The notes below the pieces were generated by a model. That model ran no database searches and was not told the DNA's origin. It worked only from the letters and a program-made list of their open reading frames with translations. Positions 24,746 through 46,581 of a DNA stretch of 64,000 bases are shown in pieces (the first letter of the stretch is position 1; each line of letters opens with the position of its first letter). Both the position numbers and the translations under genes were made by a program. This DNA is from Candidatus Omnitrophota bacterium (lineage in GTDB: Bacteria > Omnitrophota > Gorgyraeia > Zapsychrales > Fredricksoniimonadaceae): the NCBI GenBank assembly GCA_044225175.1, contig JBGAJA010000001.1, forward strand, positions 329,178-393,177. Reading direction: 5' to 3'.

Positions 24746-27700
24746 ATGCTTAAGATTTATTGCTTCCGAAGGACTCTGTGCCTGGGACTAATTTTTGCTT
24801 TTTTGCTTAATACCATTGGCCCATTGCCAGCTTATGCTCACGAACCTCGCCTCCGGAACCTCGTAGGTTCCGAAGGCCAGGTTCCGCAAGGTTTGCCTAA
24901 GCCTGGGGTCATGGTCCATCTAAGCGCCCCTGTAAATCCCCCTTTGCTCAAAGGAATCAAAGTCCATCCAGATAACCCTTTTAGGTTCGATTTTATCCTG
25001 GATACAGGGTATGTCTCCGTCGAGGATACAGATAATTTAAGGCAAGAATCCAGCCGTCTAATCAAGTACTTTTTAGCCTCTTTAACCACCCCAGAAGCCG
25101 ACCTATGGGTGAACCTAAGCCCCTATGAGAAGAATCGTATAGTTCCCGAAAGCTTTGGCCAAACCGAGATGGGCCGAGACCTCCTAGCCCAGGACTACAT
25201 GCTCAAACAAATCACAGCCAGTTTAATGTACCCAGAAGATGGGGTAGGAAAGAGGTTTTGGAAGAGAATCTATGAAGAATCGGCCAAAAGGTATGGAACA
25301 ACCAATATTCCGGTCAATACCTTCAATAAAGTATGGATAGTCCCTGAGAAGGCAGTAGTGTATGAGAATGCCAAGGCAGGGACGGCGTATGTGGTGGAAT
25401 CCAGGTTGAAGGTGATGTTGGAGGAGGATTATGTATCTGTGCAGAAACATTCAAAAACATTGTCGTCCCCGAATGTTTTAGTCGGGGACCTAGGACACGA
25501 GGGTGCTAGATTCCCGACAAAAGCATTCGGGAATGACAAGGATGTTAATATAGGTAATCAAATCATCCGCGAAATCGTCATCCCCGAATTAACCAAGGAA
25601 ATCAATGAAGGATCGAATTTCGCCCAATTGCGTCAGGTCTATAACAGTCTGATCCTGGCCACCTGGTACAAGAAGAAAATTAAAGATTCAATCTTTACGA
25701 AGGTTTATGTGGATCGGAATAAGGTTGTGGGTCTTGGGTATATGGGAGGTGAGCCACAACAAATCTACCAACGCTACCTGAATGCCTTCAAGAAAGGTGT
25801 TTACAATTATATCAAGGAAGAATCCGATCCAATTTCCCAGAAACGTGTCACAAGAAAATATTTTAGCGGAGGCACTACATTTAACGATCAAGCCATGAAT
25901 GCAGTATTTCATACTACCCAAGATGGTACAAAAATTATTAAGATGGCAATTGATAATTCAGTTATTGTTCAGGTTGGCATAAAAGATTTTGCTATGGCTA
26001 GTACTAAACTCAAATCTCCGTCTGATATATTGGTTTATACACCTGAAAATGGAGCCACTGTAAAAAAGGGTAGAATAACTGGAGCTAAGCCAGTTGAAAT
26101 TTTTCCCAACGCGATCTGGGCAACAAGAAATATATCTCAACTTGTACAAGGTAATGAATTTCTTGTAGATATTCCATTAACCAAGGATAAAAAATTTCGT
26201 CTTTTAGGAGTGGATTGGAATTTAAGAGGAGGATCTGAAGGAGAAAGAATAGTAGCGCAGTTTAGAAAAGAGGACGGAAATTATGTTTTAATAACTGCTT
26301 ACAATGAAGCAGGAGAAGTAATTTACGAAAAAGATATTGATTCAAAGATTGAACAAAACAAAGAAGCAAAAGTTTATACTCCTGGGTCAGGAGCAAAGAT
26401 TGAAAATGGAAAAATTGTAGGAAAACCCACTGATAAATTTCCTCAAAACGCAGCCACGCGAAGACTATTAGAGCTAAATTTAGAAGAGTTTTATTTAGAT
26501 GTCAAACTCAATAGTGGAGGACAACTAAATCTTTTTCAAGAGAATTGGTGGGGCAAGAAGACAGAGTATGCAGACCAAAGAGTAAGTGTTCATTTTAAGA
26601 AAGAAAAAGGAGCGTACCAACTAGTAGCTGCTTATGACAAAGACGGAAATCTCATTTATCCTATTTCTGAAGATGAACAAATCCAATTATTTATTCCTTC
26701 TGATAAAACTCGTATTGAAAATGGAAAAGTTATCGGTACGCCTAGTCAAACATATTCTAATAAACATACCGCCATTAAATCTATTGATCTTCCGGAGTTT
26801 TATATAAAACTCCGTCTTAATCAATACGGTGGGCTTAATATGTGGGGACAACAAATGGCTCCCCGAAAAGGCTATGAAAATGCTGAAGTTCTCGTTCATT
26901 TCAAAAAATTTGAAGATACATATACCGCCATAGCTATTTATGACGCAAATGGAGAACAAATCGAACAGGAAGCCCCTGAACAAGTCGTTATTTATATTCC
27001 CAAAGAAGGGACAAGGTTAGAGAACGGAAAGATTGTTGGTAAAGCTTCACGTACATATGACAGTAGAATTTGGGCGGCCCGTGAATTAATGACTGATATC
27101 GCAAATTCACCAGAAGAATTTTACACTGAATTGACTTTAACCGATAAGGGCGGCTTTTCTTTCTTTAGTAAATGGTGGGCATCAAAAAAAGGTTACGAAA
27201 AGGCAAAAATTACAGCTCACTTTCGAAAAGTTAAGAATGAGTATGATCTGGTCGCTGTATATGATTCTAATGGTCAAGAAATCTATAGCCAAAATAAACA
27301 ACAAGAAGGGAAGATAGAAATTTTTACCCCTCAAAATGGTTCGCATATCAAAGATGGATTGCTTCAAGCCGGTCAACCTGAAACTGTTTTGTATCATGCA
27401 AGATCTGTACCAACCTATCTTGAAGATCACCCTCTTGAAGAATTTTTTGTAAGAACACATTTGGATGATAAGGGTGGTTTTTATCTAATGGGAGAGCATT
27501 GGTGGACGAGTAAAAGTGGTTCTGAAAATGTAGAGGTGGTCGTCCACTTTAAGAAAAATGAAGAAGGACAATATGAGTTGGAAGCTGCTTATGACCAAAA
27601 AGGTCAAGATTTAACCGTTGAAAAAGAACCAATAAAGATCTATGCCTCTAGAAATGGAGCAACAATTGTTCAAGGGAAAATATCAGGACAACCTGTTAGT

Positions 27701-30700
27701 CAATTTCCTAAGAAGACGCAAGCGTTACGCTTATTGAAGCAGTTGGATAGTGAAGATATTTATCTAGAAGTCACTCTTAGTAATGATGGTGGTTTTCTTA
27801 TTAGTTCTTATCGTAAATTAGCTTTGCCAGGCTATGAAAATACAAAAGTATTACTTCATTTTCAAAATAAAAATTCAAAAAAGAACCTTATCAATGTATA
27901 TGACAGCCAAGGCAATGTTATCTGGGGAGAAATTTACGATAGTAAAACAAGAGTTTATATCGCAGACAATGAAGTAAAATTAAATGAAGGAAAGGTTGTT
28001 GGTCAACCGGCAGAAACATTTACTACTCAAAGGGATGCTATTAAATTTGTTACTGCAAGAAAAATTAAGGAATTTTATTTAACTACTCCACTCACATCAC
28101 AGGCAGGTATTTACTTAGGCAGAGATTTTTGGCAATCAGATAATATAAGAAAACACCAGAACTCACTTGCTACTCTCCATTTTCGTTTAAATGAAGGCTC
28201 CCAATATGAACTTGTAGCGAGCTATGATCAAGATGGTAGGCGGTTGAACTTAATAAAAGTTAAATCTGATGAGATTATTGAAATTCACACTTCCGAAGGT
28301 GGATCAAAAATAGAAAATGGGTTTATTGTAGGAGAACCAATCGAGATATCTTCTAGTAAACTTGCCGCACAGCAGATTGTATCAGCAATGAGTCACTCCG
28401 ATGTTTTTGTAAAAATGCGTATAGGAGAAATGGGCAAAATTAGTTTTATGGGGCATTGGGCAAGCAGGTCTAATTCTGCCAATAAAGAAGTGCATTCGCA
28501 TTTTAAAAAACAAGATATGAGATATGTGTTGGTTGCTGCCTATGAGGCTGGTCAGAAAATTTATCCGAAAGAAGAGAACGAACAGGATAAGATCAGTATT
28601 TATAGCGCACATACAGGGGCTGTAATTGAGGAAGGGAAAATTAAAGGTCAACCTATTGAAACATTTAGTGACAAGATTCAAGCGTCATTGACTATACAAT
28701 CAATGGGATTGACAGACTTTTTTGTAAAAATGCGTTTGGATGGACAGGGTAAGCTATATTTTCTTGGAAGACATTGGTGGGGAGGCAAGAAAGGTCATGA
28801 AGATGCAGAGGTTTTGATACATTTTAAAAAGAGTCCAGAAAAAGGTTATGAATTAATTGATGCCTATGATAATCAAGGTAATTTAATCTACCCTACTGGA
28901 AAAAGAGATCCTTATAGTGTAGAAAGAAAAAGATTTAACGTAATGATTGGGGCCGAAGAAGCTCAAAAATTACTAGAAACATTAGGGCTGGAGGCCACAT
29001 TTGGACTTCTTTCACGGGCACATGGCTTCACCCCAACATTCCTTGCTCAAACACTAACGGGTTATGCCGAGAAAATACAAAGTGAAGGTAATCAGTTTGG
29101 GTATGCTTCAAATCGTAGTTTTTCATTTGTTCAAGCGCGACAATCCAACGTTTTTAGTAAAATTGAGCCTGATAAGCTGGATGTAGTTGTCGAGACATTG
29201 ATAAGAAGCATGTATAAGGATGTTGTTGAAGATAATCATTTTCTTAATGTTTTAAGAGAGCAAAGTGAAAATCCTTCCAATGGAGACATGCTGCAAAAAG
29301 CTTATAAACAAGTAGCTGATTATTATGACCATCAATTAAAAATCGAAATGGGAGGCATTGATGAAACAGCTATTTTACCGAAACTATACCAGAGGATTGG
29401 CGCGCAGTTTTTAATTGATAGAAAGCATGCCATTCTAGCTGATGAACCTGGTTTAGGAAAAACACTAGAAGCGATCATGGCAGTTGTGAATGTGCCGGAA
29501 TTTGACAAAGATGTAAGAGATGCGGGTTATCGAGAAGGTGAAATGATAGAGCCAAAAGAGAAGATTTTAATTATTGCACCTAAAAGAGCAGCTGATCGTG
29601 TATGGAAAAGAGAAATCCAAGCATATACAACGGGTCGTTTAAAGGTTGAAGTAGTTAACCGATCAAAAATTCGTAGCCGTTCAACAGTAGATAAAAACCC
29701 CGAATTAAATCTAAAAAGAAGATTTGATAGAATCAAGCAGGCCCAAGTTCTTATTGTTAATCCTTATGCAATTGCAGGAGAAGATGGTAACGGATTGCTT
29801 TTAAGAGAACATCTTAAGCAGTTTAAATATAAGGTCATCATATTGGATGAAGCTCATAATATTCGTAATGAAAGTACATTGACTGATGCTGTCCGTGAAT
29901 TTGATGCTGAATATAAATTCGCTTTGACTGCGACTCCTTTGGTTGGACAAACAGTTGCAAAATTATTTAATTTACTTCAATGGCTATATCCAGAACGGTA
30001 TAAAGATAAATGGAACTTTTCAGTTAAATATGCTGGCAGAGAGAAGGCATTTTTATTAAGACAAGAGTTGCGGCCATTTTTGTTAAGACGAACAAAAGTG
30101 GATGTTACAGACATGCCTTTAAAGAATTATGTTAACGTTCCCGTAAGCCTTACTGATGAAGAAAGACAATTTTATTTAGAGGTTGCAAATTACTTCTCAA
30201 TCTGGATAAAAAGTTCTATTAGACAAAATGATCCAAAATATTATTTGAAGATTCTTTCTCAACTTTCTCGACTACGCTTAGCAGCCCTCAATACGGGATT
30301 GATTATTCGCCTTCAAAATAATGGAGAAAAGATTTTTGCTTATACTGGAGGAAGCTTCACTCTGGGCAATCGTAAGTATAGATTTACTAAAGAAAAGGAA
30401 GTTATTGTTGGTTTGAAGGATGAAGAGGGGCATGAATTTCGTTTTGAAAAAGGGAAGTCAGGTACTCAAGTTACTATTGATAAGAAAGTTTATGAAGTTC
30501 AGGTTAAGGATAATTTAAATCCAAGCCGGTATTTAGCTATTGATAAAATTATAGAGGAGAAAATAGCTAAAGGGGAAAAGGTTATTCTAAATACGAATTA
30601 TCGGGAAGTTGTTTTTCAATTAGCGGCTCGGTATAAACATTATGGGGTGAATTATGCATTTGGTGATATGACAAGCTCCCAAGTTGATAGTGAAATTGAA

Positions 30701-32662
30701 GCTTTTCAAGAAAATCCAGATCAGAAAATATTCATTGCTACTTATGGTTCTGGATCAGAAGCAATATCCTTAACTGCTGCTAATAATGTTATTGAAGTTG
30801 ATAAGCCCACATATCCTCTTGTGCGTATCCAAGCTAATGACCGTCCTCATCGTTGGGGACAGGATAAAATAGTAAATATTTATCGTTTAACGGGCATTGA
30901 TACGATTGATGAATATTTTGAATTCCAGCTTACACGATCAGAAGCGTTATTTCGTTTGCTTTTTGAAGTTGGTGAGCCATTGCCAAACTTTAATCAGGAA
31001 ATTATTAAGGAATTATTAAGGGAATTAAAATATCCCGACGAAATCATTGACCATTTTCTTAAGATACACGAAGGTTTAGGTGCTAAGGTGAATAATCAGC
31101 CTCCTGACACGGTCACCAATGAATTTATTGACCAGAGTTCTGGTATAAGTATGCGTTTCACTGATGGAAATATATCAGGACGATTTTCAACTAATCAAGG
31201 ATTTGTTGAACCTAAAACAACATCCCAATTAGTATCTATCGCTAAAGATTTAACAGATCCATCTAAGAAATTCTTAAGAAATTTTCTTGAGAAACGCCTA
31301 ACCGAAGAAATTAACCTCAAAGTTCCAATTAAGCAATCTGTCTTATGGTCGTTATTAAATGTTCTTATGCCACAATTGACAAAGGTTGATACGAACTATT
31401 CCATTGAACGTAATTTGGAAATTGGACGCATTGTTATCAGTCTACTTTTACAAAACCCGAGCCTTAAGTATGAGGATTTACTTGGATCTGTTAATGATCA
31501 ATTAAGCTTATCGAAAGCTTTATATTTCTTGGATGAGCGTAATATATTTAAGCTATTTTCTTTGCTCGGAGTTCTTGATCAACAATATTATTTTGATGGA
31601 GAGTTGCTTTCCTACGCATCTCCCTTAAAACTCGGCATTACTAACGGAAATCTTGTGTATACGGATGAAAAGATCGTTAATGCGATTGCTCCTGATAGAT
31701 ACCGTGAACCTAAGCTCAAAACTGATCCTAATCGTTCTTTTCAAAATTTAGCTCGAAGGTATCGATTTTTGACAAGAGAAGAAGAAATACGGTTAGGAAG
31801 GGAGGCTGGTAAAGGTAATTTGGCCGCCCGGGTAGCTTTAGTTGAAGCTCATTATTATTATATTGTGGATACAACCTATAGGATTATTCAAAGACAACTT
31901 AAGGAAAGAGCGCTTATATCTTCCTCGTTTTTTAAATTAGATAGAAAGACTTTATATGAAGATCTTTATGCTCTAGGTCAGAATGTCTTATATGAGCTTT
32001 CCAGCTCTTATTACATTGAATCAAAAACTATCAATTTCCGAAATTATGTAAGACCAAAATTTTTAAAAGCAATAATTGCAGAATTTTACCGTCAAATTCG
32101 TTTAGTAGATAAGGAAAAGAAAACTTTAGATGTTACGGTTGAGCCAAGGAAGGGTAGATCATTCATTCGTGCTGAAAATGTAAAATCTGATGAATATCTT
32201 TCTCCTATGAGTCTTAATCCGGAATCTTCTATAGCAATAGCTATAACTAAGATTTTAGAGGCAAATGGATACAGAGATCAAGAGATTCAAGCGTATTTTA
32301 TGGCAATGACTGAACAAATCGTTCCTAAAAAGATAGCGCATGATTTGAAGATTTCAATACGCCAGATTAGAAGCATCGTTGATGATGCAAAAATTATTTT
32401 ACAAGGATCAAAACAATTACAGCAAGACTTTCATTCCATAAAAGATGCAGATTCAGCAGATGAAGCAATGAAATCCAGAAAAGGGGGAATAGACTTTACA
32501 GATGATAAAATATCTTTGGGTGTCCAGAGAATTGGTGATGGTATTAAATTTAATATGGATCCCGCCATATTGAATCGCCTGCAAAATGCTCCTGGCTTTT
32601 ATCCGGTGATTATCAATATTGCTCCTCTTTCTGATTTAAATACTTTTTTGAGCTTAAATTAG
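24746..32662 (+). CDS. Giant multidomain protein (2638 aa): signal peptide + novel N-domain + 9 tandem ~107-aa repeats + SNF2-family ATPase + C-terminal sigma-70-like module
   Basis: SP MLKIYCFRRTLCLGLIFAFLLNTIGPLPAYA|HEP. The N-domain (aa ~40-375) is paralogous to 60607-62928. SNF2 motifs are 'ILADEPGLGKTLEAI', 'LDEAHNIRN' and 'QANDRPHRWGQ'. The C-terminus has sigma region 1.2/2 ('LTREEEIRLGREAGKGN..ARVALVEAH', 'GQNVLYEL..INFRNYVRPKFLKAII') and region 4-like ('HDLKISIRQIRSIVDDAKIIL'). Confidence 0.85.
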   Translation: MLKIYCFRRTLCLGLIFAFLLNTIGPLPAYAHEPRLRNLVGSEGQVPQGLPKPGVMVHLSAPVNPPLLKGIKVHPDNPFRFDFILDTGYVSVEDTDNLRQESSRLIKYFLASLTTPEADLWVNLSPYEKNRIVPESFGQTEMGRDLLAQDYMLKQITASLMYPEDGVGKRFWKRIYEESAKRYGTTNIPVNTFNKVWIVPEKAVVYENAKAGTAYVVESRLKVMLEEDYVSVQKHSKTLSSPNVLVGDLGHEGARFPTKAFGNDKDVNIGNQIIREIVIPELTKEINEGSNFAQLRQVYNSLILATWYKKKIKDSIFTKVYVDRNKVVGLGYMGGEPQQIYQRYLNAFKKGVYNYIKEESDPISQKRVTRKYFSGGTTFNDQAMNAVFHTTQDGTKIIKMAIDNSVIVQVGIKDFAMASTKLKSPSDILVYTPENGATVKKGRITGAKPVEIFPNAIWATRNISQLVQGNEFLVDIPLTKDKKFRLLGVDWNLRGGSEGERIVAQFRKEDGNYVLITAYNEAGEVIYEKDIDSKIEQNKEAKVYTPGSGAKIENGKIVGKPTDKFPQNAATRRLLELNLEEFYLDVKLNSGGQLNLFQENWWGKKTEYADQRVSVHFKKEKGAYQLVAAYDKDGNLIYPISEDEQIQLFIPSDKTRIENGKVIGTPSQTYSNKHTAIKSIDLPEFYIKLRLNQYGGLNMWGQQMAPRKGYENAEVLVHFKKFEDTYTAIAIYDANGEQIEQEAPEQVVIYIPKEGTRLENGKIVGKASRTYDSRIWAARELMTDIANSPEEFYTELTLTDKGGFSFFSKWWASKKGYEKAKITAHFRKVKNEYDLVAVYDSNGQEIYSQNKQQEGKIEIFTPQNGSHIKDGLLQAGQPETVLYHARSVPTYLEDHPLEEFFVRTHLDDKGGFYLMGEHWWTSKSGSENVEVVVHFKKNEEGQYELEAAYDQKGQDLTVEKEPIKIYASRNGATIVQGKISGQPVSQFPKKTQALRLLKQLDSEDIYLEVTLSNDGGFLISSYRKLALPGYENTKVLLHFQNKNSKKNLINVYDSQGNVIWGEIYDSKTRVYIADNEVKLNEGKVVGQPAETFTTQRDAIKFVTARKIKEFYLTTPLTSQAGIYLGRDFWQSDNIRKHQNSLATLHFRLNEGSQYELVASYDQDGRRLNLIKVKSDEIIEIHTSEGGSKIENGFIVGEPIEISSSKLAAQQIVSAMSHSDVFVKMRIGEMGKISFMGHWASRSNSANKEVHSHFKKQDMRYVLVAAYEAGQKIYPKEENEQDKISIYSAHTGAVIEEGKIKGQPIETFSDKIQASLTIQSMGLTDFFVKMRLDGQGKLYFLGRHWWGGKKGHEDAEVLIHFKKSPEKGYELIDAYDNQGNLIYPTGKRDPYSVERKRFNVMIGAEEAQKLLETLGLEATFGLLSRAHGFTPTFLAQTLTGYAEKIQSEGNQFGYASNRSFSFVQARQSNVFSKIEPDKLDVVVETLIRSMYKDVVEDNHFLNVLREQSENPSNGDMLQKAYKQVADYYDHQLKIEMGGIDETAILPKLYQRIGAQFLIDRKHAILADEPGLGKTLEAIMAVVNVPEFDKDVRDAGYREGEMIEPKEKILIIAPKRAADRVWKREIQAYTTGRLKVEVVNRSKIRSRSTVDKNPELNLKRRFDRIKQAQVLIVNPYAIAGEDGNGLLLREHLKQFKYKVIILDEAHNIRNESTLTDAVREFDAEYKFALTATPLVGQTVAKLFNLLQWLYPERYKDKWNFSVKYAGREKAFLLRQELRPFLLRRTKVDVTDMPLKNYVNVPVSLTDEERQFYLEVANYFSIWIKSSIRQNDPKYYLKILSQLSRLRLAALNTGLIIRLQNNGEKIFAYTGGSFTLGNRKYRFTKEKEVIVGLKDEEGHEFRFEKGKSGTQVTIDKKVYEVQVKDNLNPSRYLAIDKIIEEKIAKGEKVILNTNYREVVFQLAARYKHYGVNYAFGDMTSSQVDSEIEAFQENPDQKIFIATYGSGSEAISLTAANNVIEVDKPTYPLVRIQANDRPHRWGQDKIVNIYRLTGIDTIDEYFEFQLTRSEALFRLLFEVGEPLPNFNQEIIKELLRELKYPDEIIDHFLKIHEGLGAKVNNQPPDTVTNEFIDQSSGISMRFTDGNISGRFSTNQGFVEPKTTSQLVSIAKDLTDPSKKFLRNFLEKRLTEEINLKVPIKQSVLWSLLNVLMPQLTKVDTNYSIERNLEIGRIVISLLLQNPSLKYEDLLGSVNDQLSLSKALYFLDERNIFKLFSLLGVLDQQYYFDGELLSYASPLKLGITNGNLVYTDEKIVNAIAPDRYREPKLKTDPNRSFQNLARRYRFLTREEEIRLGREAGKGNLAARVALVEAHYYYIVDTTYRIIQRQLKERALISSSFFKLDRKTLYEDLYALGQNVLYELSSSYYIESKTINFRNYVRPKFLKAIIAEFYRQIRLVDKEKKTLDVTVEPRKGRSFIRAENVKSDEYLSPMSLNPESSIAIAITKILEANGYRDQEIQAYFMAMTEQIVPKKIAHDLKISIRQIRSIVDDAKIILQGSKQLQQDFHSIKDADSADEAMKSRKGGIDFTDDKISLGVQRIGDGIKFNMDPAILNRLQNAPGFYPVIINIAPLSDLNTFLSLN
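26020..28920 (+). repeat. Nine in-frame tandem repeats of ~320 nt (~107 aa) inside the giant gene
   Basis: Each unit: '[IV]Y.P..G..IENGK[IV]VG.P...F......L......EFY......GG.......W....GYE.A.V..HFKK....Y.L.A.YD..G..IY'. Unit starts fall near 26023, 26371, 26681, 26983, 27313, 27633, 27948, 28280 and 28593. Confidence 0.8.
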
Positions 32663-41030: not shown

Positions 41031-42629
41031 ATGCATAAAGAATTCATTCAGAAATGGATGCCATTGTTCTATGCGATTTTGGGCTTTGGTCTCTTATTGC
41101 GTTTGTGGAATATTACGGATAATCAATTCCTTTTTTATGACGAAGGAATGTATTTAGGTTATAACCGTAATTTTTTAGATTTGGTTGCAGCTAATCCCCC
41201 TAAAGACATTAATGAGTTTTTGACTATTCTTGGGCTTATGTTCAAGCAAGCACTTGGAACCGCCAAAGCGCTTTGGTTTTTTGTGCTCAATTTAAGAGTG
41301 TTCTTTTCCAATCCTCAAAATTGGGCCTTTGCCAGAGAAATTTCGGCTTTAGCTGGAATTGGGACCATTGTTTTGACTTACTTTTTTGCCAACAAATACT
41401 TTAAATCCAAACTAATTGCTGTTTTAAGCGTTGTATTTCTAAGTCTTCTTCCTAGTCATGTGTTTTATTCCCGATTAGGGATGCAGGAATCATTAAGTAC
41501 CTTATTATTTCTATCGGCTTTATATGTGTATTTGTTCTATAGAACTTCCAAATGGAGCCCTTATGTTTCTGCGATCCTTTTGTCTTGTGTTTATTTTACC
41601 AATTACAGAATGATTATTGCTCCTATGTTTATTGGGGCAATTGAAGTTTATGAGGCCTTTCAAAATCGTCAGAAGATTAATTGGCCAAGGCTATTGATTT
41701 GTATTGGGGTCTTTGGTCTGATTGTCTTTATTGTGGGATCTTTGTACGGAGGGATTAATCGCTATGTCACATTTGGATGGATGTCCCATCAAGCCCAGGA
41801 GACAAAAGCCGTTCAGGGGGGCATCTTAAATTTTCTATCCTATCCTTATTACACGATTGCGCTGGAAGGAATTTTTTTCGCATTAATCTTTTGGGCAAAT
41901 AGTTATTTAGTCTTTAAGAAAGAATGGTCTAAGCTTTTACCTTTTGCATTAGTTCTTCTTCAAATGGGGATCTTTTCGTTGGCGGCAGAAAAGGGAGCTA
42001 GGTATTTATGTGTGGTTTTACCATTGATGGCCATTGCTGCAGCCGTATCATTTAACTATTTTCTTAATCATGCCAAAATTAAGAAGTATGTTTTAGCCCT
42101 TGGAGTTCTAGCTTGTTTGTTCATGGCCATAGAATCGCTCATTATTATGCTTTCAAGAACATCTTATGAGAAAGCTGTGCATGTTGTTCGTAAGAATGAT
42201 CCTCAAGCCAGAATTCTTTCTACTCAATCTTTGGTTGAGCAGCTGTATGTTCAGGATGAAACCATTATTAAAGAATGTCCTAAGAATCTTGCTGAATTTA
42301 TTCAATTGTACACTGAAGGCTATCGTTATTTAGTTATGGATCCCCAGGTTTATATTTCCTGGACCAAGGACACTCAGAGATTTAATCCACCCTTGATTGA
42401 TTTCTTGGAGTTCATTCAACAGAATGCCAAACCCATTGTGACTTTAGACCACCTAAACCCTGTTATGCTTAAACGTTTTGTCCTAGATCACAACCAAACT
42501 CTAGGTTTGTCCATTCAATTTTTAAATGTCTCTCAACGGTTTAATTATGGCCAGATTAAGATTTATGATATTGGTCAATGCTTAGTGATGTTAAAACAAC
42601 AGGCACTGAAAGCAGAAGAGGAAAAATAA
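41031..42629 (+). CDS. Putative GT-C family membrane glycosyltransferase (ArnT/PMT-like)
   Basis: About 11 TM segments with an N-terminal 'YDEGMYLGY' acidic loop typical of the GT39/GT83-like fold. C-terminal soluble domain. Confidence 0.45.
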   Translation: MHKEFIQKWMPLFYAILGFGLLLRLWNITDNQFLFYDEGMYLGYNRNFLDLVAANPPKDINEFLTILGLMFKQALGTAKALWFFVLNLRVFFSNPQNWAFAREISALAGIGTIVLTYFFANKYFKSKLIAVLSVVFLSLLPSHVFYSRLGMQESLSTLLFLSALYVYLFYRTSKWSPYVSAILLSCVYFTNYRMIIAPMFIGAIEVYEAFQNRQKINWPRLLICIGVFGLIVFIVGSLYGGINRYVTFGWMSHQAQETKAVQGGILNFLSYPYYTIALEGIFFALIFWANSYLVFKKEWSKLLPFALVLLQMGIFSLAAEKGARYLCVVLPLMAIAAAVSFNYFLNHAKIKKYVLALGVLACLFMAIESLIIMLSRTSYEKAVHVVRKNDPQARILSTQSLVEQLYVQDETIIKECPKNLAEFIQLYTEGYRYLVMDPQVYISWTKDTQRFNPPLIDFLEFIQQNAKPIVTLDHLNPVMLKRFVLDHNQTLGLSIQFLNVSQRFNYGQIKIYDIGQCLVMLKQQALKAEEEK

Positions 42630-42646
42630 AAAAGAGATATTAAATT

Positions 42647-42877
42647 ATGCATATATTCATTGGAAACTTATCATTTGCAGCCAAGGAAGAAGATGTCAAA
42701 ATTCTTTTTGAACAATTTGGTGTGGTTGAGTCGGTTAATATGAAGAAGAAGGCTCGGGGGCACGCGTTTGTGGTTATGCCGGATGCCAATCAAGGGCATA
42801 AGGCGATTGAATCTCTTACTGGTCAATCATTCATGGGAAGGCCCATAGACATTAGTATTCGTCAATTTAAACGTTAA
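42647..42877 (+). CDS. RRM-type RNA-binding protein
   Basis: RNP2 'IFIGNL' and RNP1 'RGHAFVVM' motifs. Confidence 0.85.
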   Translation: MHIFIGNLSFAAKEEDVKILFEQFGVVESVNMKKKARGHAFVVMPDANQGHKAIESLTGQSFMGRPIDISIRQFKR

Positions 42878-42893
42878 GAAAAGGATAGTTCAG

Positions 42894-43133
42894 ATGGATG
42901 CGCAACAACATAAAGATATCTTACATGGGGTTAAGCTTGAGACCATTTTGATACGTTTACATAGGAAACATGGATGGGATGGTCTTTACGATCGTATCAA
43001 AATCAATTGCTTTGGTAAGAACCCTAGCATTAAATCAAGTCTAACCTTTCTGCGCAAAACACCGTGGGCCAGAGAGAAGGTAGAAAATCTTTATATGTAT
43101 TTGAAACCAGAAGATCGTAAAGAAATAATATAA
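42894..43133 (+). CDS. VF530/DUF2132 family protein
   Basis: 'LHGVKLETIL..L...GW..L...I.INCF..NPSIKSSLTFLRKTPWAREKVE' matches the DUF2132 pattern. Confidence 0.7.
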   Translation: MDAQQHKDILHGVKLETILIRLHRKHGWDGLYDRIKINCFGKNPSIKSSLTFLRKTPWAREKVENLYMYLKPEDRKEII

Positions 43134-43169
43134 ACTAAACCAAGATATTTTAGATGTTTTGCTATAAAG
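43132..43169 (+). repeat. Left copy of a ~38-bp imperfect direct repeat (partner at 44510-44547)
   Basis: aaactaaaccaagatattttagatgttttgctataaag against aaactaaacaatgatatttttaatgttttgctataatg, about 33/38 identical. Both copies follow a stop codon and end in a TATAA(A/T)G -10-like box. Confidence 0.7.
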
Positions 43170-43263
43170 ATCAGGGGGATCAGGGGACACACAACGTAAT
43201 TCAAGTTAGGCTAAAGGTTAGGTAATAATTAAGTTGTGTGTACCCAGAATTCTAGGGAGCTAT

Positions 43264-43911
43264 ATGATCTATTTTATCCTAGGAATTGTTCTACTTTTTT
43301 TAAACATTTGGTTTTTTACATCCTATTCAGAGCTTTTAGAGAAAATTATGAGCGGGCAATGGGATTATATTTATCTTTTTTGCTCTGGGTATTTTATTAT
43401 TTTGGTAGAAATACTTTATCTTTTTTGTTCAATCCCGATTTATTTTTTAAATTTATATTTGTTTAATAAGTATTCATCTTCTTTTAGTTCTTTAGGATTA
43501 GAAATTAAGAAGTTTAATCCCTTTAATCCGTTTAGTTTTCTTTTATCTTTTAAGTATAAGGGGAGAGATATTGAAATCCTTAACTACAGATCGGTAAGAG
43601 GAAATCAAGCAATGATTATTCGTATTAAAATAAAAAATAAACCTAAATTTACTGACTTTAAATCAAAAAACGATTATTTAAGTTTTCCAATTAATTTTAA
43701 TGACGATCCAACTACTAGTGAAAAAGCAAAGACACTTCTTGAAGATTTATATAATCAAACAATTACATTTGAATTAAGAGGTCATACTTTTGAGAAAAAA
43801 GTCACTATTGATGGAAAAGAAGCCGATAAAGTAATGCTAATAATAGCGGGAATACTTTGCCTCTTGGTGGCAGCCGCCTTTTATATGGGTTATTACAGAG
43901 GTTTGGGGTAA
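43264..43911 (+). CDS. Hypothetical membrane protein encoded in a very AT-rich islet
   Basis: Two N-terminal and one C-terminal TM helix. Strongly AT-skewed codon usage unlike its neighbours. A TTG at 43234 is an alternative start. Confidence 0.45.
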   Translation: MIYFILGIVLLFLNIWFFTSYSELLEKIMSGQWDYIYLFCSGYFIILVEILYLFCSIPIYFLNLYLFNKYSSSFSSLGLEIKKFNPFNPFSFLLSFKYKGRDIEILNYRSVRGNQAMIIRIKIKNKPKFTDFKSKNDYLSFPINFNDDPTTSEKAKTLLEDLYNQTITFELRGHTFEKKVTIDGKEADKVMLIIAGILCLLVAAAFYMGYYRGLG

Positions 43912-43935
43912 GCAGAATATAAGAAAGGCATTAAT

Positions 43936-44073
43936 ATGGCGGAATACAACGTAGGTGACAAGGTTGTTTTGAAGGATGATGGCCAACGATATAAAGTGGT
44001 TGGCGTGCGCACTGAAGATCATATCGTGCTTTTTGATTTAGAGAAAGGTGATAAAAGGGCCTCAAAAATTTGA
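43936..44073 (+). CDS. Small hypothetical protein (45 aa), not in the ORF track
   Basis: AAGAAAGG RBS. MAEYNVGDKVVLKDDGQRYKVVGVRTEDHIVLFDLEKGDKRASKI. Confidence 0.3.
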   Translation: MAEYNVGDKVVLKDDGQRYKVVGVRTEDHIVLFDLEKGDKRASKI

Positions 44074-44109
44074 AGACGCTGCTTACCAAGAGATGGACTA
44101 GAGTATTGG

Positions 44110-44505
44110 ATGGCGCGTGACATTCAAGCCCTTCTAGACTATACACAGTGGCGTAATTTTTTACAGGTCATTGATAAGGCTAAGTTAGCATGTTTAAATT
44201 CAAGGCAGATTGTTTCAGACCATTTTGCTGACGTCAGCAAAATGGTCAAGTTAGGGTCAGATAGTGAGTGTCAAATTGACGATATCATGCTAACTCGCTA
44301 TGCCTGTTATCTCATTGCCCAAAATGGTGAACCACCCATTGCTCAGGAGCATGTTAAAAACAATAAAGATGTGCGAGGTTTATTGGCTAAAAGTGGAATT
44401 CAACCCGAAAATCTTCCTCCTGAAGAGGATGTTCAGAAATTTCAACGCAGGGTTAGTAGCGACCAAAAAAAGATAGCTTTAAGTGTTAAGAAGATTAAGA
44501 AATAA
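44110..44505 (+). CDS. DinD / BRO-N-like (KilA-N related) DNA-damage-inducible-type protein
   Basis: '[26 protein letters not shown]' and '[20 protein letters not shown]' resemble DinD/RhuM-type N-domains. Confidence 0.45.
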
Positions 44506-44509
44506 AGTA

Positions 44510-44547
44510 AAACTAAACAATGATATTTTTAATGTTTTGCTATAATG
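44510..44547 (+). repeat. Right copy of the ~38-bp direct repeat
   Basis: See 43132-43169. Confidence 0.7.
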
Positions 44548-44583
44548 CGTTTATCTTTGAAGGTCAATTCCTAGGAAAATCAT

Positions 44584-46581
44584 ATGACATTTGAGCAGTT
44601 TGTTTCGAATATTGAAAATTTTAATGAACGTTACGCTAGTGATGTAACTCCCACCAGTTATTTTGGTTTTCCAATTGCTCCAATTCTTGAAGCTGAACGC
44701 CGCTTAGCTGATGCCAAGGAGAAATCAACGGCTTATTTCTCCATGGAATATGGGCTGGCTCCAAGTATCTACAATTCGTTTAATCCAAGCAAACCTGTCA
44801 GTGATCAAAACAAATTTTTTACTCATGAAGTCTTCTCCAACTATTGGCTCTCCGACTACGTATTTAAGATCAAGATCGATAAAATGCTTGATATCCCTAT
44901 TTACAGCGGGGGATTAGGTGTTTTAGCGGGCGATACGGTTAAAAGCATCGCAGACATGGGGCTTTCGGTTGTGGCTCTTGGGATTTTGTGGAATAAGGGA
45001 TATTTTAAGCAGAACTTTTGGTATAAGCATGGGCAGGTTCCAGAAGAACTTTCTTGGGACCCAACCACTTATCCTGGGCTTATTCCTCTGAAGAATCGTG
45101 TGATTATGCCTACCAAAGAGGGGAATCTCGTCTTACGTCTGTGGAAATACTACGTCTATAGTTATGATAAAAAGCATGTTTGTCCTCTTGTCCTTTTAGA
45201 TTCAAATCTTCCTGAGAATAGTGAACATTTTAAAGCTTTAACTGATCAGCTGTATCGTTCTGATCATGTGTCATGGCGAATTTTACAGCGTTCGATTCTT
45301 GGAATCGGAGGAATGAAGGCGCTTACTGAATTGAAACTCAACATTGATTGTTATCATCTCAATGAAGGTCATGCTGCATTTGCCTTGGTTGAAAAGTACT
45401 TGAGTTTGAAAAATAAATCTCAAATGGCCCAAGAGAAAAAGAAATTTGTTTATACTTGCCATACGCCTGTAGCCGCTGGCCATGATCGTTTTTGGATTCC
45501 AGATATCAAGAATGTCTTTAATCCTGATTATGTAAAGGCCATGGAAGATTTTGGAAAAGAAACGGCCAAATCAGATACGGTGAACTTAACTCACATTTGT
45601 TTAGATAATTGTAGGCGTACGAATGCTGTGGCCCAGAAACACGGGGAAATCATGCGTCTTCAGTTTCCTGACTTTGCTGATCATATTGATGCGATCACAA
45701 ATGGGATTCATATTCATACCTGGATTTCTCTTACCTTTTCTTCACTGTTTGATAAATATCCTAAGACTTTTGGTGATTGGAGAGCTAATCCTCAAAATTT
45801 AGAGAAGGTCGTAGAACTGGCCTCTAATGAAATATTCAGAAAAGATCTTTTTGATGCTCATCAAGTCAACAAAAGGAATTTGCTAAGTATTCTCAAACCC
45901 TGGAAGCTGGATGAAAATGTTTTAACAATTTCATGGGCCCGTCGTATTACAGGATATAAACGTCCTTCACTATTATTCCATCGCATTGATGAGGTCCTGG
46001 ATTTAGCTCATAAGGTTGGTCCTTTACAAATCATTTTCGGGGGTAAGTCCCATCCCAATGACAATATAGGGGCGGCTCATATTCAAGATATTTTGAATCA
46101 TATTGATAAACTCAATAGTCATCATAAGATCATTAAAGTTCTGATTTTGGAGAATTATGATACTTATTTTGGAAAGCTTTTGACTAATTCCGTTGATATC
46201 TGGCTGAACAATCCTTTGCCGCCTTTTGAAGCTTCCGGCACAAGTGGGATGAAGGCTATTCTTAATGGTGTCTTGCAGGTGTCTACCCTAGACGGGTGGG
46301 TGGTTGAGGCTGAGAAGGATGATATTGGCTGGATCTTTGGATATGAGCATCATGGAAAAGAAATCGGCAGTGAGAATCAACTGCGTTTGGATGAAGATTC
46401 TGCAGCTTTATGTAAAACATTAAAAGATGTGATGACTCTTTATTATAAAACTAATAAAGGGGGAACGATTGATCTTAAGTCTCCTTGGATTGATAAAATG
46501 ATCCATTGCATCAGACGTGCTGCGTTTTTTAATACTCAACGAATGGTTGAGGAATACAAACAGAAGATGTGGAAAGCATGA
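44584..46581 (+). CDS. Alpha-glucan (glycogen/maltodextrin) phosphorylase, GT35 short form
   Basis: '[14 protein letters not shown]' PLP-lysine motif and '[11 protein letters not shown]'. Confidence 0.85.

Follow-up and report, generated by a model that had tools for sequence, protein, structure and literature searches.

Between a VF530/DUF2132 gene and an alpha-glucan phosphorylase gene of a Candidatus Omnitrophota bacterium, a patch of about 1.4 kb is bracketed by two imperfect direct repeats. Here, we analysed the 64-kb stretch of the genome that holds this patch, which will be hereafter referred to as the window. The repeated 38-48 bp is probably the promoter-bearing intergenic segment of the phosphorylase gene, composed of an extended -10 element, TGCTATAAT, and about 25 bp upstream of it. 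This segment is present twice because a 1.38-kb accessory patch sits inside it, between VF530 and phosphorylase. The patch is best described as a decaying mosaic of chromosomal accessory genes, and it is not likely to be a self-mobile element. Its presence here and its absence from a sister strain, L162, would most plausibly reflect ordinary strain-level gain or loss by general recombination rather than the movement of a discrete mobile cassette. The evidence consists of the identity of the repeats, the empty site, a step in divergence at that site, the mosaic content of the patch and the absence of mobility genes. All features described below lie on the forward (+) strand.

The two repeat copies, 43132-43169 (copy 1) and 44510-44547 (copy 2), are identical at 33 of 38 positions, so that they differ at 13% of positions, and their starts are 1378 bp apart. 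When one gap is allowed, the similarity extends over 48/49 nt (43120-43167 against 44497-44545) at 86% identity. An identical core of 14 bp, ATGTTTTGCTATAA, is common to both. A search of the window that allowed up to 3 mismatches gave these two copies alone, and 100 shuffled sequences gave no match. The search for further copies, which had been suggested when the repeats were first noticed, thus excludes a generic intergenic motif within the window. As the sequence-only reading had stated, both copies abut stop codons: copy 1 shares its first two bases with the VF530 TAA (43131-43133), and copy 2 begins 4 nt past the stop of the dinD ORF (44503-44505). The boxes that it had noted, TATAAAG in copy 1 and TATAATG in copy 2, are also there. 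The C-terminus of the VF530 protein (KEII*) is 2 residues longer than that of its homologues in a C-terminal alignment, and it extends into the repeat.

Copy 2 is the predicted extended -10 promoter of the phosphorylase gene itself. It has the sigma-70 extended -10 sequence TGCTATAAT at 44538-44546, 37 nt before the phosphorylase ATG, and this element is conserved at the same gene in relatives. Of 144 loci, 55 have the 12-mer TTTTG[CT]TATAAT at most 200 nt upstream of phosphorylase; elsewhere, 3.5 Mb contained it just 8 times. Conserved upstream of phosphorylase across the phylum, the 12-nt element is a by-product of this work that may outweigh the islet in usefulness. Copy 1, with TGCTATAAA, has TATAAA where the empty site and the 55 related promoters have TATAAT, with its conserved final T. 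Both copies are homologous to the intergenic region between a PMT-like glycosyltransferase gene and phosphorylase in five related loci (L001-L005), a region that on sequence comparison represents the putative ancestral state of both. A simple -35/-10 promoter scan flagged neither copy because the -35 is absent; each is a putative promoter. The earlier suggestion that a promoter/terminator segment had been duplicated therefore holds for the promoter, with its phosphorylase-specific 12-mer, but not for the terminator, for which the scan gave no evidence; no terminator was called between VF530 and the first gene of the patch.

The genes around the patch have a history of their own. The PMT-like membrane glycosyltransferase gene, 41031..42629, has a weak Pfam PMT match and is the direct upstream neighbour of phosphorylase in about 35 relatives. 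Wherever the phosphorylase identity is 71% or more, tblastn synteny puts the PMT end 0-344 bp from the phosphorylase start. In the window, the two genes are separated by an RRM-type RNA-binding protein gene, 42647..42877 (Pfam RRM_1, 1.5e-15), by the VF530/DUF2132 gene, 42894..43133 (Pfam VF530, PF09905, 3.4e-31, 107.6 bits against a cutoff of 27), and by the patch. The phosphorylase gene itself, 44584..46581, matches TIGR02094 at 6e-122. The RRM gene is missing from the PMT/phosphorylase site in all 160 related loci, the RRM-VF530 pair is also found in L174-L177, and L162 shares it. RRM and VF530 are thus themselves an insertion specific to this lineage, older than the patch, between the glycosyltransferase gene and phosphorylase. 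It is conceivable, though very improbable, that the phosphorylase promoter is a recurrent site at which host recombination alone captures gene-sized modules, where RRM and VF530 arrived first and the patch later. By the same very doubtful account, each arrival would leave a new promoter copy, giving an integron-like expression slot that needs no integrase. However, no third promoter copy is detectable between PMT and RRM, and no second duplication of the promoter at the PMT/phosphorylase site occurs in about 160 related loci. A candidate third partial copy at the PMT-RRM junction (42613-42649) was rejected, as its alignment score ranks 359th among 6394 window segments, which is background. We also rejected the site as a general hotspot: deeper relatives hold conserved ApbE-like, methyltransferase and FemAB-like genes there and not mobile DNA.

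The empty site that had been predicted for close relatives is present in L162, in the order VF530, single repeat, phosphorylase. L162 is a 2.7-kb contig which, like a second contig used below, L170, comes from the very fragmented metagenome assembly GCA_020049755.1, so that the two are not assured to be from one organism. Positions 1-1908 of L162 align to window 41260-43167 at 97.07% identity without gaps, and positions 1861-2695 align to window 44497-45329 at 86.4%. To the right of the repeat, the identity is uniformly about 85%. The change from 97% left of 43167 to 86% past the repeat therefore places a recombination breakpoint within the repeat. Window 43119-43167 is identical to L162, and the homology of copy 1 to the empty site stops at 43167, within the -10 hexamer. 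From the L162 copy, copy 1 differs at position 37 alone and copy 2 at 4 positions. Third-position divergence from L162 is 3.9% for PMT, 15.6% for RRM and 8.8% for VF530, compared with 38.7% for phosphorylase. The 5' 759 nt of phosphorylase, 86% identical to L162, carry 106 differences, 98 of them at third positions, and the left flank is 2.9% diverged. The earlier reading had the cassette inserted by duplication of the segment. Copy 2 as a fresh duplicate of copy 1 does not agree with these numbers: it holds 4 of the 5 differences and is linked to a phosphorylase allele 14% diverged from L162, while copy 1 and the left flank are only 0-3% diverged. The outgroup states of the five variable repeat positions were tried as a guide to the direction of the event, and they are ambiguous.

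The abrupt change of identity at the repeat is also what a chimeric join would give, and the assembly is a very fragmented one. L162 might then combine, in a chimera, a strain like that of the window with another species, fused where they share promoter sequence, and the difference in presence of the patch would not be a true polymorphism. This is quite unlikely. The L162 phosphorylase is 98.4% identical to that of the window at the amino acid level (249 of 253 residues), against 87% for the next-best other species. Furthermore, L170, from the same assembly, has one of the patch genes in another context, consistent with its absence from the VF530/phosphorylase site. The exact identity between the window copies is 14 nt, which is short for an assembler k-mer. 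The two junctions of the window itself were both recovered at 100% in the independent Logan contigs L081 and L169. JGI metagenome contigs contained nothing closer, with a best phosphorylase identity of 83%, and an exact look-up of the phosphorylase of the window gave no match.

The patch can be divided into a hairpin spacer, an intact gene for a transmembrane (TM) protein, the 5' 60% of a small gene and a damaged dinD gene. The three ORFs described before, for a TM protein, a 45-aa peptide and a DinD/BRO-N-like protein, all exist. However, the claim that the region is far more AT-rich than its surroundings applies only to the TM-gene part. This part has 28% GC and includes the lowest-GC 600-nt stretch of the window (26%), whereas the pep45/dinD half, at 39-42% GC, exceeds the mean of the window (36.8%). 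Taken as one, the interval between the repeats has 34.0% GC, only the 15th percentile of equal-sized windows.

The spacer, 43168-43252, consists of 85 bp and carries an imperfect hairpin, 43180..43248, with 22-nt arms that are 86% complementary and a 25-nt loop. A tandem GATCAGGGG GATCAGGGG precedes the hairpin, which has a predicted RNA fold of -25.9 kcal/mol (z -2.76). It was considered as a dispersed repeat and discarded, since it occurs once in the window, and an Rfam scan of 40-48 kb gave nothing at E up to 1.

The TM-gene module, 43253..43934, is made of an RBS (GGGAG), a coding sequence of 215 aa (43264-43911, with its ATG at 43264) and a 23-nt tail. The protein has N-terminal helices, a beta-rich middle and a C-terminal helix. 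The module is 97.4% identical, without gaps, to L170 189-870, while the L170 flanks are unrelated. Both versions keep an intact ORF; between them, 4 codon changes are synonymous and 11 are non-synonymous. A word-indexed search of 5.8e9 proteins found no homologue, and an exhaustive search of 1.8e9 representatives returned only the L170 copy and one marginal repeat-domain match. There was no match in Pfam, NCBIfam or PHROG and no relative in viral contigs. A single-sequence AlphaFold (AF2) model had a pLDDT of 57.5, too poor for a fold search. A 121-aa membrane protein encoded after VF530 in L174 was examined as a possible relative, but at E 0.13 it shows no relation. The TM gene is thus a rapidly evolving orphan membrane-protein gene.

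The position of copy 1, 95 nt upstream of the TM start and with TGnTATAA retained, raises the question of whether the promoter segment was duplicated in situ to transcribe the TM gene, the repeat then being kept by selection. An ORF that stays intact in two lineages despite 28% GC would agree with this. Such adaptive promoter capture nevertheless has a low probability: the hexamer of copy 1 is TATAAA, without the final T, L170 keeps the TM ORF without the copy-1 promoter, and RRM, VF530 and the TM gene are co-directional with no terminator between them, so that read-through would suffice.

The third part, pep45 (43936..44073), is a small Tudor-like gene cut short, of which 43 of 76 codons remain at the 5' end. 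It is 79% identical at the amino acid level and 77.6% at the nucleotide level (43919-44064) to L172/L173. The full-length 76-aa gene, pep76, lies directly 3' of VF530 in other Omnitrophota, and its product has a weak Tudor_RapA match. The fourth part is a remnant of a dinD gene of the BRO-N family, 44048..44505, whose longest ORF is 44110-44505 (131 aa). Aligned to the 241-245-aa Omnitrophota DinD proteins P0122, P0124, P0157, P0184 and P0163, residues 20-101 are found at 44089-44334, while residues 6-20 are in another frame (44048-44092). About 120 central codons are missing, and the C-terminal tail reaches 44505. The 5' end has been lost to a frameshift: there is an in-frame TGA at 44071, and the frame of the conserved N-terminus, MKKExI...FE, is not intact. 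The remnant matches the DinD equivalog profile NCBIfam NF008573 (288 positions, cutoff 242 bits) at 166.6 bits (7e-49), in two stretches that fall short of full length, the best of which covers 21-102. It also matches Pfam Bro-N (PF02498) at 1e-11, with 45.8 bits against a cutoff of 25.6, over profile positions 9-86 of 96. Short DinD forms with the identical central deletion exist, and another contig has a full-length DinD gene directly after VF530. The patch is therefore not the unit cassette first proposed, given that the TM gene stands alone in another context in L170 and that pep45 is a piece of the usual neighbour of VF530.

A perfect 30-bp palindrome, 44218..44247, lies in the dinD remnant and encodes the same 10 residues on both strands; it also gave a reverse-frame tblastn match. 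In other dinD genes, the palindrome is kept with compensatory changes. A literature search on it returned nothing relevant. This covarying 26-30-bp palindrome in dinD/BRO-N coding sequence is a second by-product that may outweigh the islet in usefulness.

The BRO-N-type gene had been read as phage or mobile cargo. Because the gene is decayed, and because Omnitrophota chromosomes commonly carry DinD as an accessory gene, it argues only weakly for this; moreover, no recombinase lies nearby, and the TM protein has no viral relatives. Domain searches found no integrase or transposase near the patch, and no recombinase or phage gene among the ORFs of the patch and of 32.8-48.6 kb. The repeats could nonetheless be the attL (copy 1) and attR (copy 2) of the remnant of a phage or island, integrated as a discrete element by site-specific recombination at an attB in the phosphorylase promoter. 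The element would then have brought its own copy of the upstream half of this promoter and so rebuilt it, and the integrase and most of the cargo would have been lost later. Around the identical 14-bp core ATGTTTTGCTATAA, the arms do follow a B-O-P' / P-O-B' pattern, in which the left arm of copy 1 and the right arm of copy 2 match the empty site and the other two arms are novel; the empty site of L162 has a single copy, the BRO-N/DinD family has a phrog (phrog_8036), and DinD homologues are frequent in viral contigs. We consider both the element and this later history unlikely. The patch and the DNA within about 10 kb of it contain no integrase, excisionase or other phage gene. In other Omnitrophota, pep76 and DinD are found next to VF530 as regular chromosomal genes, and the TM gene has no viral relative. 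An element would also leave the 14% phosphorylase divergence past the repeat unexplained, the flanks being 97% identical on the left and 86% on the right, and a second event at the site is seen in no other related locus. Direct repeats around an insert could suggest a transposon-type insertion with target-site duplication, or a REP/MITE-like intergenic element, but this is hardly credible. At 38-48 bp, the repeat is much longer than any known target-site duplication, both a transposase and terminal inverted repeats are lacking, and the copies differ at 13% of positions, yet copy 1 matches the empty site. A REP/MITE-like element does not fit with only two copies in the window and a motif tied to phosphorylase in relatives.

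General recombination at the phosphorylase promoter, the reading that we prefer, is in this way distinct from the simple duplicative insertion proposed at first, in that the data point to recombination with a diverged lineage or to loss between two old copies. The mechanism and direction that we infer from the compared sequences would be as follows. Copy 2 is intact, and phosphorylase is presumably still transcribed from it. Copy 1, whose -10 is interrupted at its last base (TATAAA), would mark the recombination joint on the left side; any promoter activity that it retains would be weakened and would read via the hairpin leader into the TM gene. The crossover may have occurred in or beside the 14-bp core. 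If the patch was gained, the donor would be a lineage diverged by about 14%, and a linear fragment of its DNA would have been anchored by phosphorylase homology and joined illegitimately at the resident -10, so that the resident promoter copy was kept and the donor copy added. In a loss, recombination between the promoter copies would have deleted the patch in the L162 lineage, where the phosphorylase allele would also have been replaced. The two routes fit about equally. Against gain, the TM gene is just 2.6% diverged from L170, which is unexpected from a donor diverged by 14%, and this donor was not observed. Against loss, the promoter copy between VF530 and the TM gene is left without explanation; because the copies differ at 13% of positions, the duplication would then be old. 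For both routes, L162 could be chimeric at the repeat.

Several known systems share features with the islet. Integron cassettes end 3' in an attC recombination site, with an intI gene nearby. The TM module, with its RBS and short tail, is likewise found in two contexts, beside an imperfect palindrome (ACACAAC...GTTGTGT) and downstream of a promoter. However, there is neither intI nor an attC array here, the palindrome is 5' of the TM gene and missing in L170, and the flanking repeats are apparent promoter copies and not attC. Integrative elements such as tRNA-gene-targeting islands carry a copy of the end of their target, rebuilding it. The islet resembles their attL/attR sites in its imperfect direct repeats, tens of bp long around an identical core, in a distal copy that rebuilds a promoter and in a single-copy empty site; it differs in that integrase and excisionase are absent, its genes do not look like the cargo of an element and the divergence of the flanks changes sharply there. 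DinD of E. coli (NF008573) is an SOS-induced BRO-N protein reported to modulate RecA. The remnant resembles it by its match to the DinD equivalog at 7e-49 and its Bro-N domain, but it is below the family cutoff, its N-terminus was lost by frameshift and about 120 central residues are missing.

In type VI secretion (T6SS) effector-immunity and Rhs loci, arrays of orphan modules arise by sequential displacement (PMC5361080). There, as here, DNA is anchored in a conserved flank and displaced older genes decay, which gives a mosaic of differing histories; the patch, however, has no toxin or immunity genes, its repeated unit is the probable promoter and not a gene end, and it is known from one lineage only. 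Homology-facilitated illegitimate recombination (HFIR), or 'homologous recombination at the border', is described in PMC3240628 and in references in PMC5361080 as an established route by which foreign DNA is trapped by a homologous anchor, in Acinetobacter, S. pneumoniae, P. stutzeri and E. coli. The islet is similar in that extra DNA is trapped beside a conserved anchor: one end of the patch runs into phosphorylase, with donor-type polymorphisms at donor-level divergence (86%), and the other is an abrupt joint with resident sequence at 43167/43168, the end at which HFIR would use a microhomology between donor and recipient. It differs in that the event is reconstructed from two natural genomes, and a deletion in the sister strain fits equally well. 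The islet offers a clean worked example from the uncultivated phylum Omnitrophota, specific to one strain, in which 'direct repeats' are probably two allelic or paralogous promoter copies that recombination united, the divergence of the flanks changing abruptly where they join, and it cautions that a repeat-flanked, BRO-N-containing patch need not be a mobile cassette.

Two imperfect copies of a 38-mer flank a patch of DNA between the VF530 gene and the alpha-glucan phosphorylase gene (44584-46581). Copy 1 (43132-43169) and copy 2 (44510-44547) are direct repeats, identical at 33 of 38 positions and 1378 bp apart. They are the only two copies in the window, where no third was found at up to 3 mismatches (matches in shuffles, 0/100). 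With one gap allowed, the similarity extends over 48/49 nt (43120-43167 against 44497-44545, 86%). Copy 1 overlaps the VF530 stop codon, while copy 2 starts 4 nt past the stop of a dinD-like (BRO-N family) ORF. The sequence-only reading, in which these repeats bracket an AT-rich inserted cassette, was correct as to the repeats and the ORFs between them, and its interpretation is supported in part. The AT-richness belongs to the membrane-protein gene (28% GC), which holds the lowest 600-nt stretch of the window (26%), but not to the half with pep45 and dinD (39-42% GC); the whole interval, with 34.0% GC against a window mean of 36.8%, is unremarkable.

The phosphorylase protein assigns the window to Candidatus Omnitrophota, and its best species-level relative, at locus L001, is 87% identical. 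In all of the approximately 35 related loci whose phosphorylase is at least 71% identical, the gene of a PMT-like membrane glycosyltransferase (41031-42629 in the window) ends 0-344 bp before the phosphorylase gene starts, and none of the RRM, VF530, TM, pep45 and DinD genes is found at this site. The short spacer between PMT and phosphorylase in L001-L005 aligns to both window copies (AAAAATAYAAAWCTAAA ... TTTTGCTATAATG). In L010, which has the promoter motif at -254, and in L012, there are about 200-300 bp extra between the PMT end or the promoter motif and the phosphorylase ATG. In the window, the 12-mer TTTTG[CT]TATAAT occurs in the two copies only. Of 144 loci, 55 have it in the 200 nt preceding the phosphorylase gene, against only 8 occurrences at other positions in 3.5 Mb of flanking sequence. 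Being largely confined to this upstream region, it is not a generic motif, and the data contradict a reading of the repeat as a transposon or as a generic repeat. The repeat is the conserved extended -10 promoter (TGnTATAAT) of the phosphorylase gene, whose activity we infer; promoters of this type function without a -35 element. Copy 2 has it intact (TGCTATAAT, 44538-44546), and copy 1 reads TGCTATAAA. In the 55 Omnitrophota loci, the 12-mer is located 18-150 nt upstream of the gene (44535-44546 in the window) and is conserved down to 56% protein identity. This is unusually deep for a bare -10 element, and a regulator site may be included. A second plus-strand 12-mer is located downstream in several distant relatives, at similar distances from the phosphorylase ATG (about +8.2 to +8.9 kb in L020, L061, L063, L064 and L067, and +7.2 kb in L050), so the promoter element may be shared with a second gene. 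A general role of the promoter as a capture site is improbable, because the promoter is duplicated at none of the other related loci.

The predicted empty site, with VF530, a single repeat and phosphorylase, exists. It was sought through VF530 homologues, and the contig of a 99%-identical homologue, L162 from a sister strain (GCA_020049755.1, 2.7 kb), has the gene order PMT, RRM, VF530, one repeat, phosphorylase. Positions 1-1908 of L162 align ungapped to window 41260-43167 with 97.07% identity, and positions 1861-2695 align to 44497-45329 with 86.4%. The window is therefore longer by 1378 bp, with the left joint at 43167/43168, within the -10 hexamer. Both window junctions are matched at 100% by two contigs from an independent assembler, L081 (42090-43691) and L169 (43851-45202). 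To the left of the repeat, the 56 differences in 1908 positions are evenly spread, and the last 49 bases before the joint are identical. To the right, 106 of 759 coding positions differ, 98 of them third positions, with 249 of 253 residues identical. Third-position divergence is 3.9% in PMT, 15.6% in RRM, 8.8% in VF530 and 38.7% in phosphorylase. Relative to the distance to the outgroup L001, the distance between the window and L162 is small for PMT (2.5% against 33.5%) and large for phosphorylase (14% against 22%). These sequence comparisons place a recombination breakpoint at the repeat. A chimeric L162 contig, which would produce such a step artificially, is unlikely, since its phosphorylase protein is 98.4% identical to that of the window and the context of the TM gene on another contig, L170, is independent. 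The RRM gene (42647-42877) has no amino-acid change against L162 despite its 15.6% third-position divergence, next to a PMT gene at 3.9%, and the left flank, at 97% identity, may be a mosaic in its own right.

Position 37 is the sole difference between copy 1 and the L162 copy. Copy 2 has four differences from the L162 copy, and its divergence is thus at the level seen on the phosphorylase side. The copies therefore did not arise by a recent duplication; recombination has brought together two diverged versions of a single promoter region.

The patch begins with an 85-bp spacer (43168-43252) that contains a tandem GATCAGGGG and a hairpin with 22-nt arms (z -2.76), which has no other copy within the window and no Rfam match. 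The TM module (43253-43934) consists of an RBS, a CDS with its ATG at 43264 and a 23-nt tail. Its 215-aa orphan membrane protein has no relative among 5.8 billion proteins. A search of 1.8 billion representatives gave one real relative, encoded on L170, a contig of the metagenome that also yielded L162. L170 is 97.4% identical over exactly the 682-nt module, with unrelated sequence on either side. The ORF of 215 codons is intact in both (window 43264-43911, L170 200-847), with 11 non-synonymous and 4 synonymous codon changes, which marks a real, fast-evolving gene under relaxed or diversifying selection. The module tail (ATAAGAAAGGCATTAA) is similar to the leader of the gene that follows, a likeness that hints at derivation of the L170 copy from a window-like arrangement. 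At the right junction on L170 (860-910), AAGGCAT is duplicated (AAGGCATTAAAGGCATAC) and followed by a tandem GGAATACCGGGA; this looks like a microhomology-type joint.

The next gene, pep45 (43936-44073), corresponds to codons 1-43 of a 76-aa gene. The full gene is found 17 nt after VF530 in L172, L173 and two more contigs, with identities of 79% (amino acids) and 77.6% (nucleotides, 43919-44064). The dinD remnant (44048-44505) has residues 6-20 in another frame and residues 20-101 intact, lacks about 120 central codons and retains the C-terminal tail; it scores 166.6 bits against the NF008573 cutoff of 242 bits. Other, independent short DinD-like proteins (P0149, P0146 and P0234) have the same in-frame central deletion, at 44326-44340 in the window, joining AQNG(D/E)x to I(A/T)xEHxxNN, so only the 5' frameshift clearly marks decay. 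The shared deletion suggests that such deletions recur between short repeats, or that the short form is a genuine isoform. The nearest full-length DinD proteins are from Omnitrophota, one encoded directly downstream of a VF530 gene and another in a defence-island-like region. The proposal of a cassette with phage or mobile BRO-N cargo was not supported: genes for recombinases, transposases or phage structural proteins are absent from the patch and from 32.8-48.6 kb, and housekeeping genes surround the patch. Upstream of this region, a single 2638-aa ORF occupies 24746-32662 on the plus strand. A decayed integrative element would fit the B-O-P'/P-O-B' look of the copies, but it would lack a recombinase and element-like cargo and leaves the divergence step unexplained.

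The dinD coding sequence includes a perfect 30-bp palindrome (44218-44247, GACCATTTTGCTGAC|GTCAGCAAAATGGTC), of which both strands encode the same 10 residues. It was also followed in dinD genes of L171 (5186-5216) and viral contigs (L178-L257). Across 120 homologues, the two variable residues of the motif change together, in pairs whose codons are reverse complements (V/N 50, A/S 37, P/R 8, A/G 8, I/N 7), and A/N or V/S pairs were never seen; compensatory pairs among DinD/BRO-N homologues include GCT/AGC, GTT/AAC, CGT/ACG, GCC/GGC and CCC/GGG. Among 33 distinct versions of the DNA, taken from viral contigs and L171, complementarity extends to 13.3 of 15 positions, compared with 8.9 +/- 1.5 when synonymous codons are chosen at random. 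In a pair count, 93.5% of cells are paired, with 51 double-change cells against 14.7 in shuffles (observed value reached in 0/500), and slid controls score far lower. The sample is partly biased, since one of the two patterns used for retrieval included the motif. This covariation suggests that the gene contains a conserved hairpin, in DNA or RNA, or a symmetric binding site; searches of full-text literature gave no description of it.

RRM and VF530 form a conserved pair elsewhere too. Relative to the approximately 35 species, they are an older insertion between PMT and phosphorylase, common to the window and L162. The VF530 C-terminus (KEII*) is two residues longer than in homologues, where the gene meets promoter-like sequence. 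A candidate third promoter copy at the PMT-RRM junction was rejected, its similarity not being significant. In more distant Omnitrophota (L018, L021, L014, L037 and L038), conserved ApbE-like, methyltransferase and FemAB-like genes lie between PMT and phosphorylase, so the direct adjacency in the closer clade is itself derived.

The patch could have been gained or lost; both routes fit, each with one extra event. In a gain, the source would be a lineage about 14% diverged; a linear fragment with the spacer, TM, truncated pep76, dinD remnant, promoter and phosphorylase would recombine homologously in or beyond phosphorylase and illegitimately at the resident -10. Both the step in divergence and the way in which the two copies differ would follow from this. 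In a loss, the patch would be ancestral, and L162 would have dropped it through a crossover between the promoter copies, with replacement of the phosphorylase allele; this would account for the 97% TM identity with L170. Also in line with an ancestral patch, its pep76 and dinD genes are usual VF530 neighbours, and their decay suggests age. Under either route, the repeats are recombination joints, not att sites or target duplications. The gain route corresponds to homology-facilitated illegitimate recombination (PMC3240628; PMC5361080). Overall, the islet is an ordinary indel at strain level in an uncultivated phylum, in which decaying accessory genes lie between two copies of a gene's promoter.
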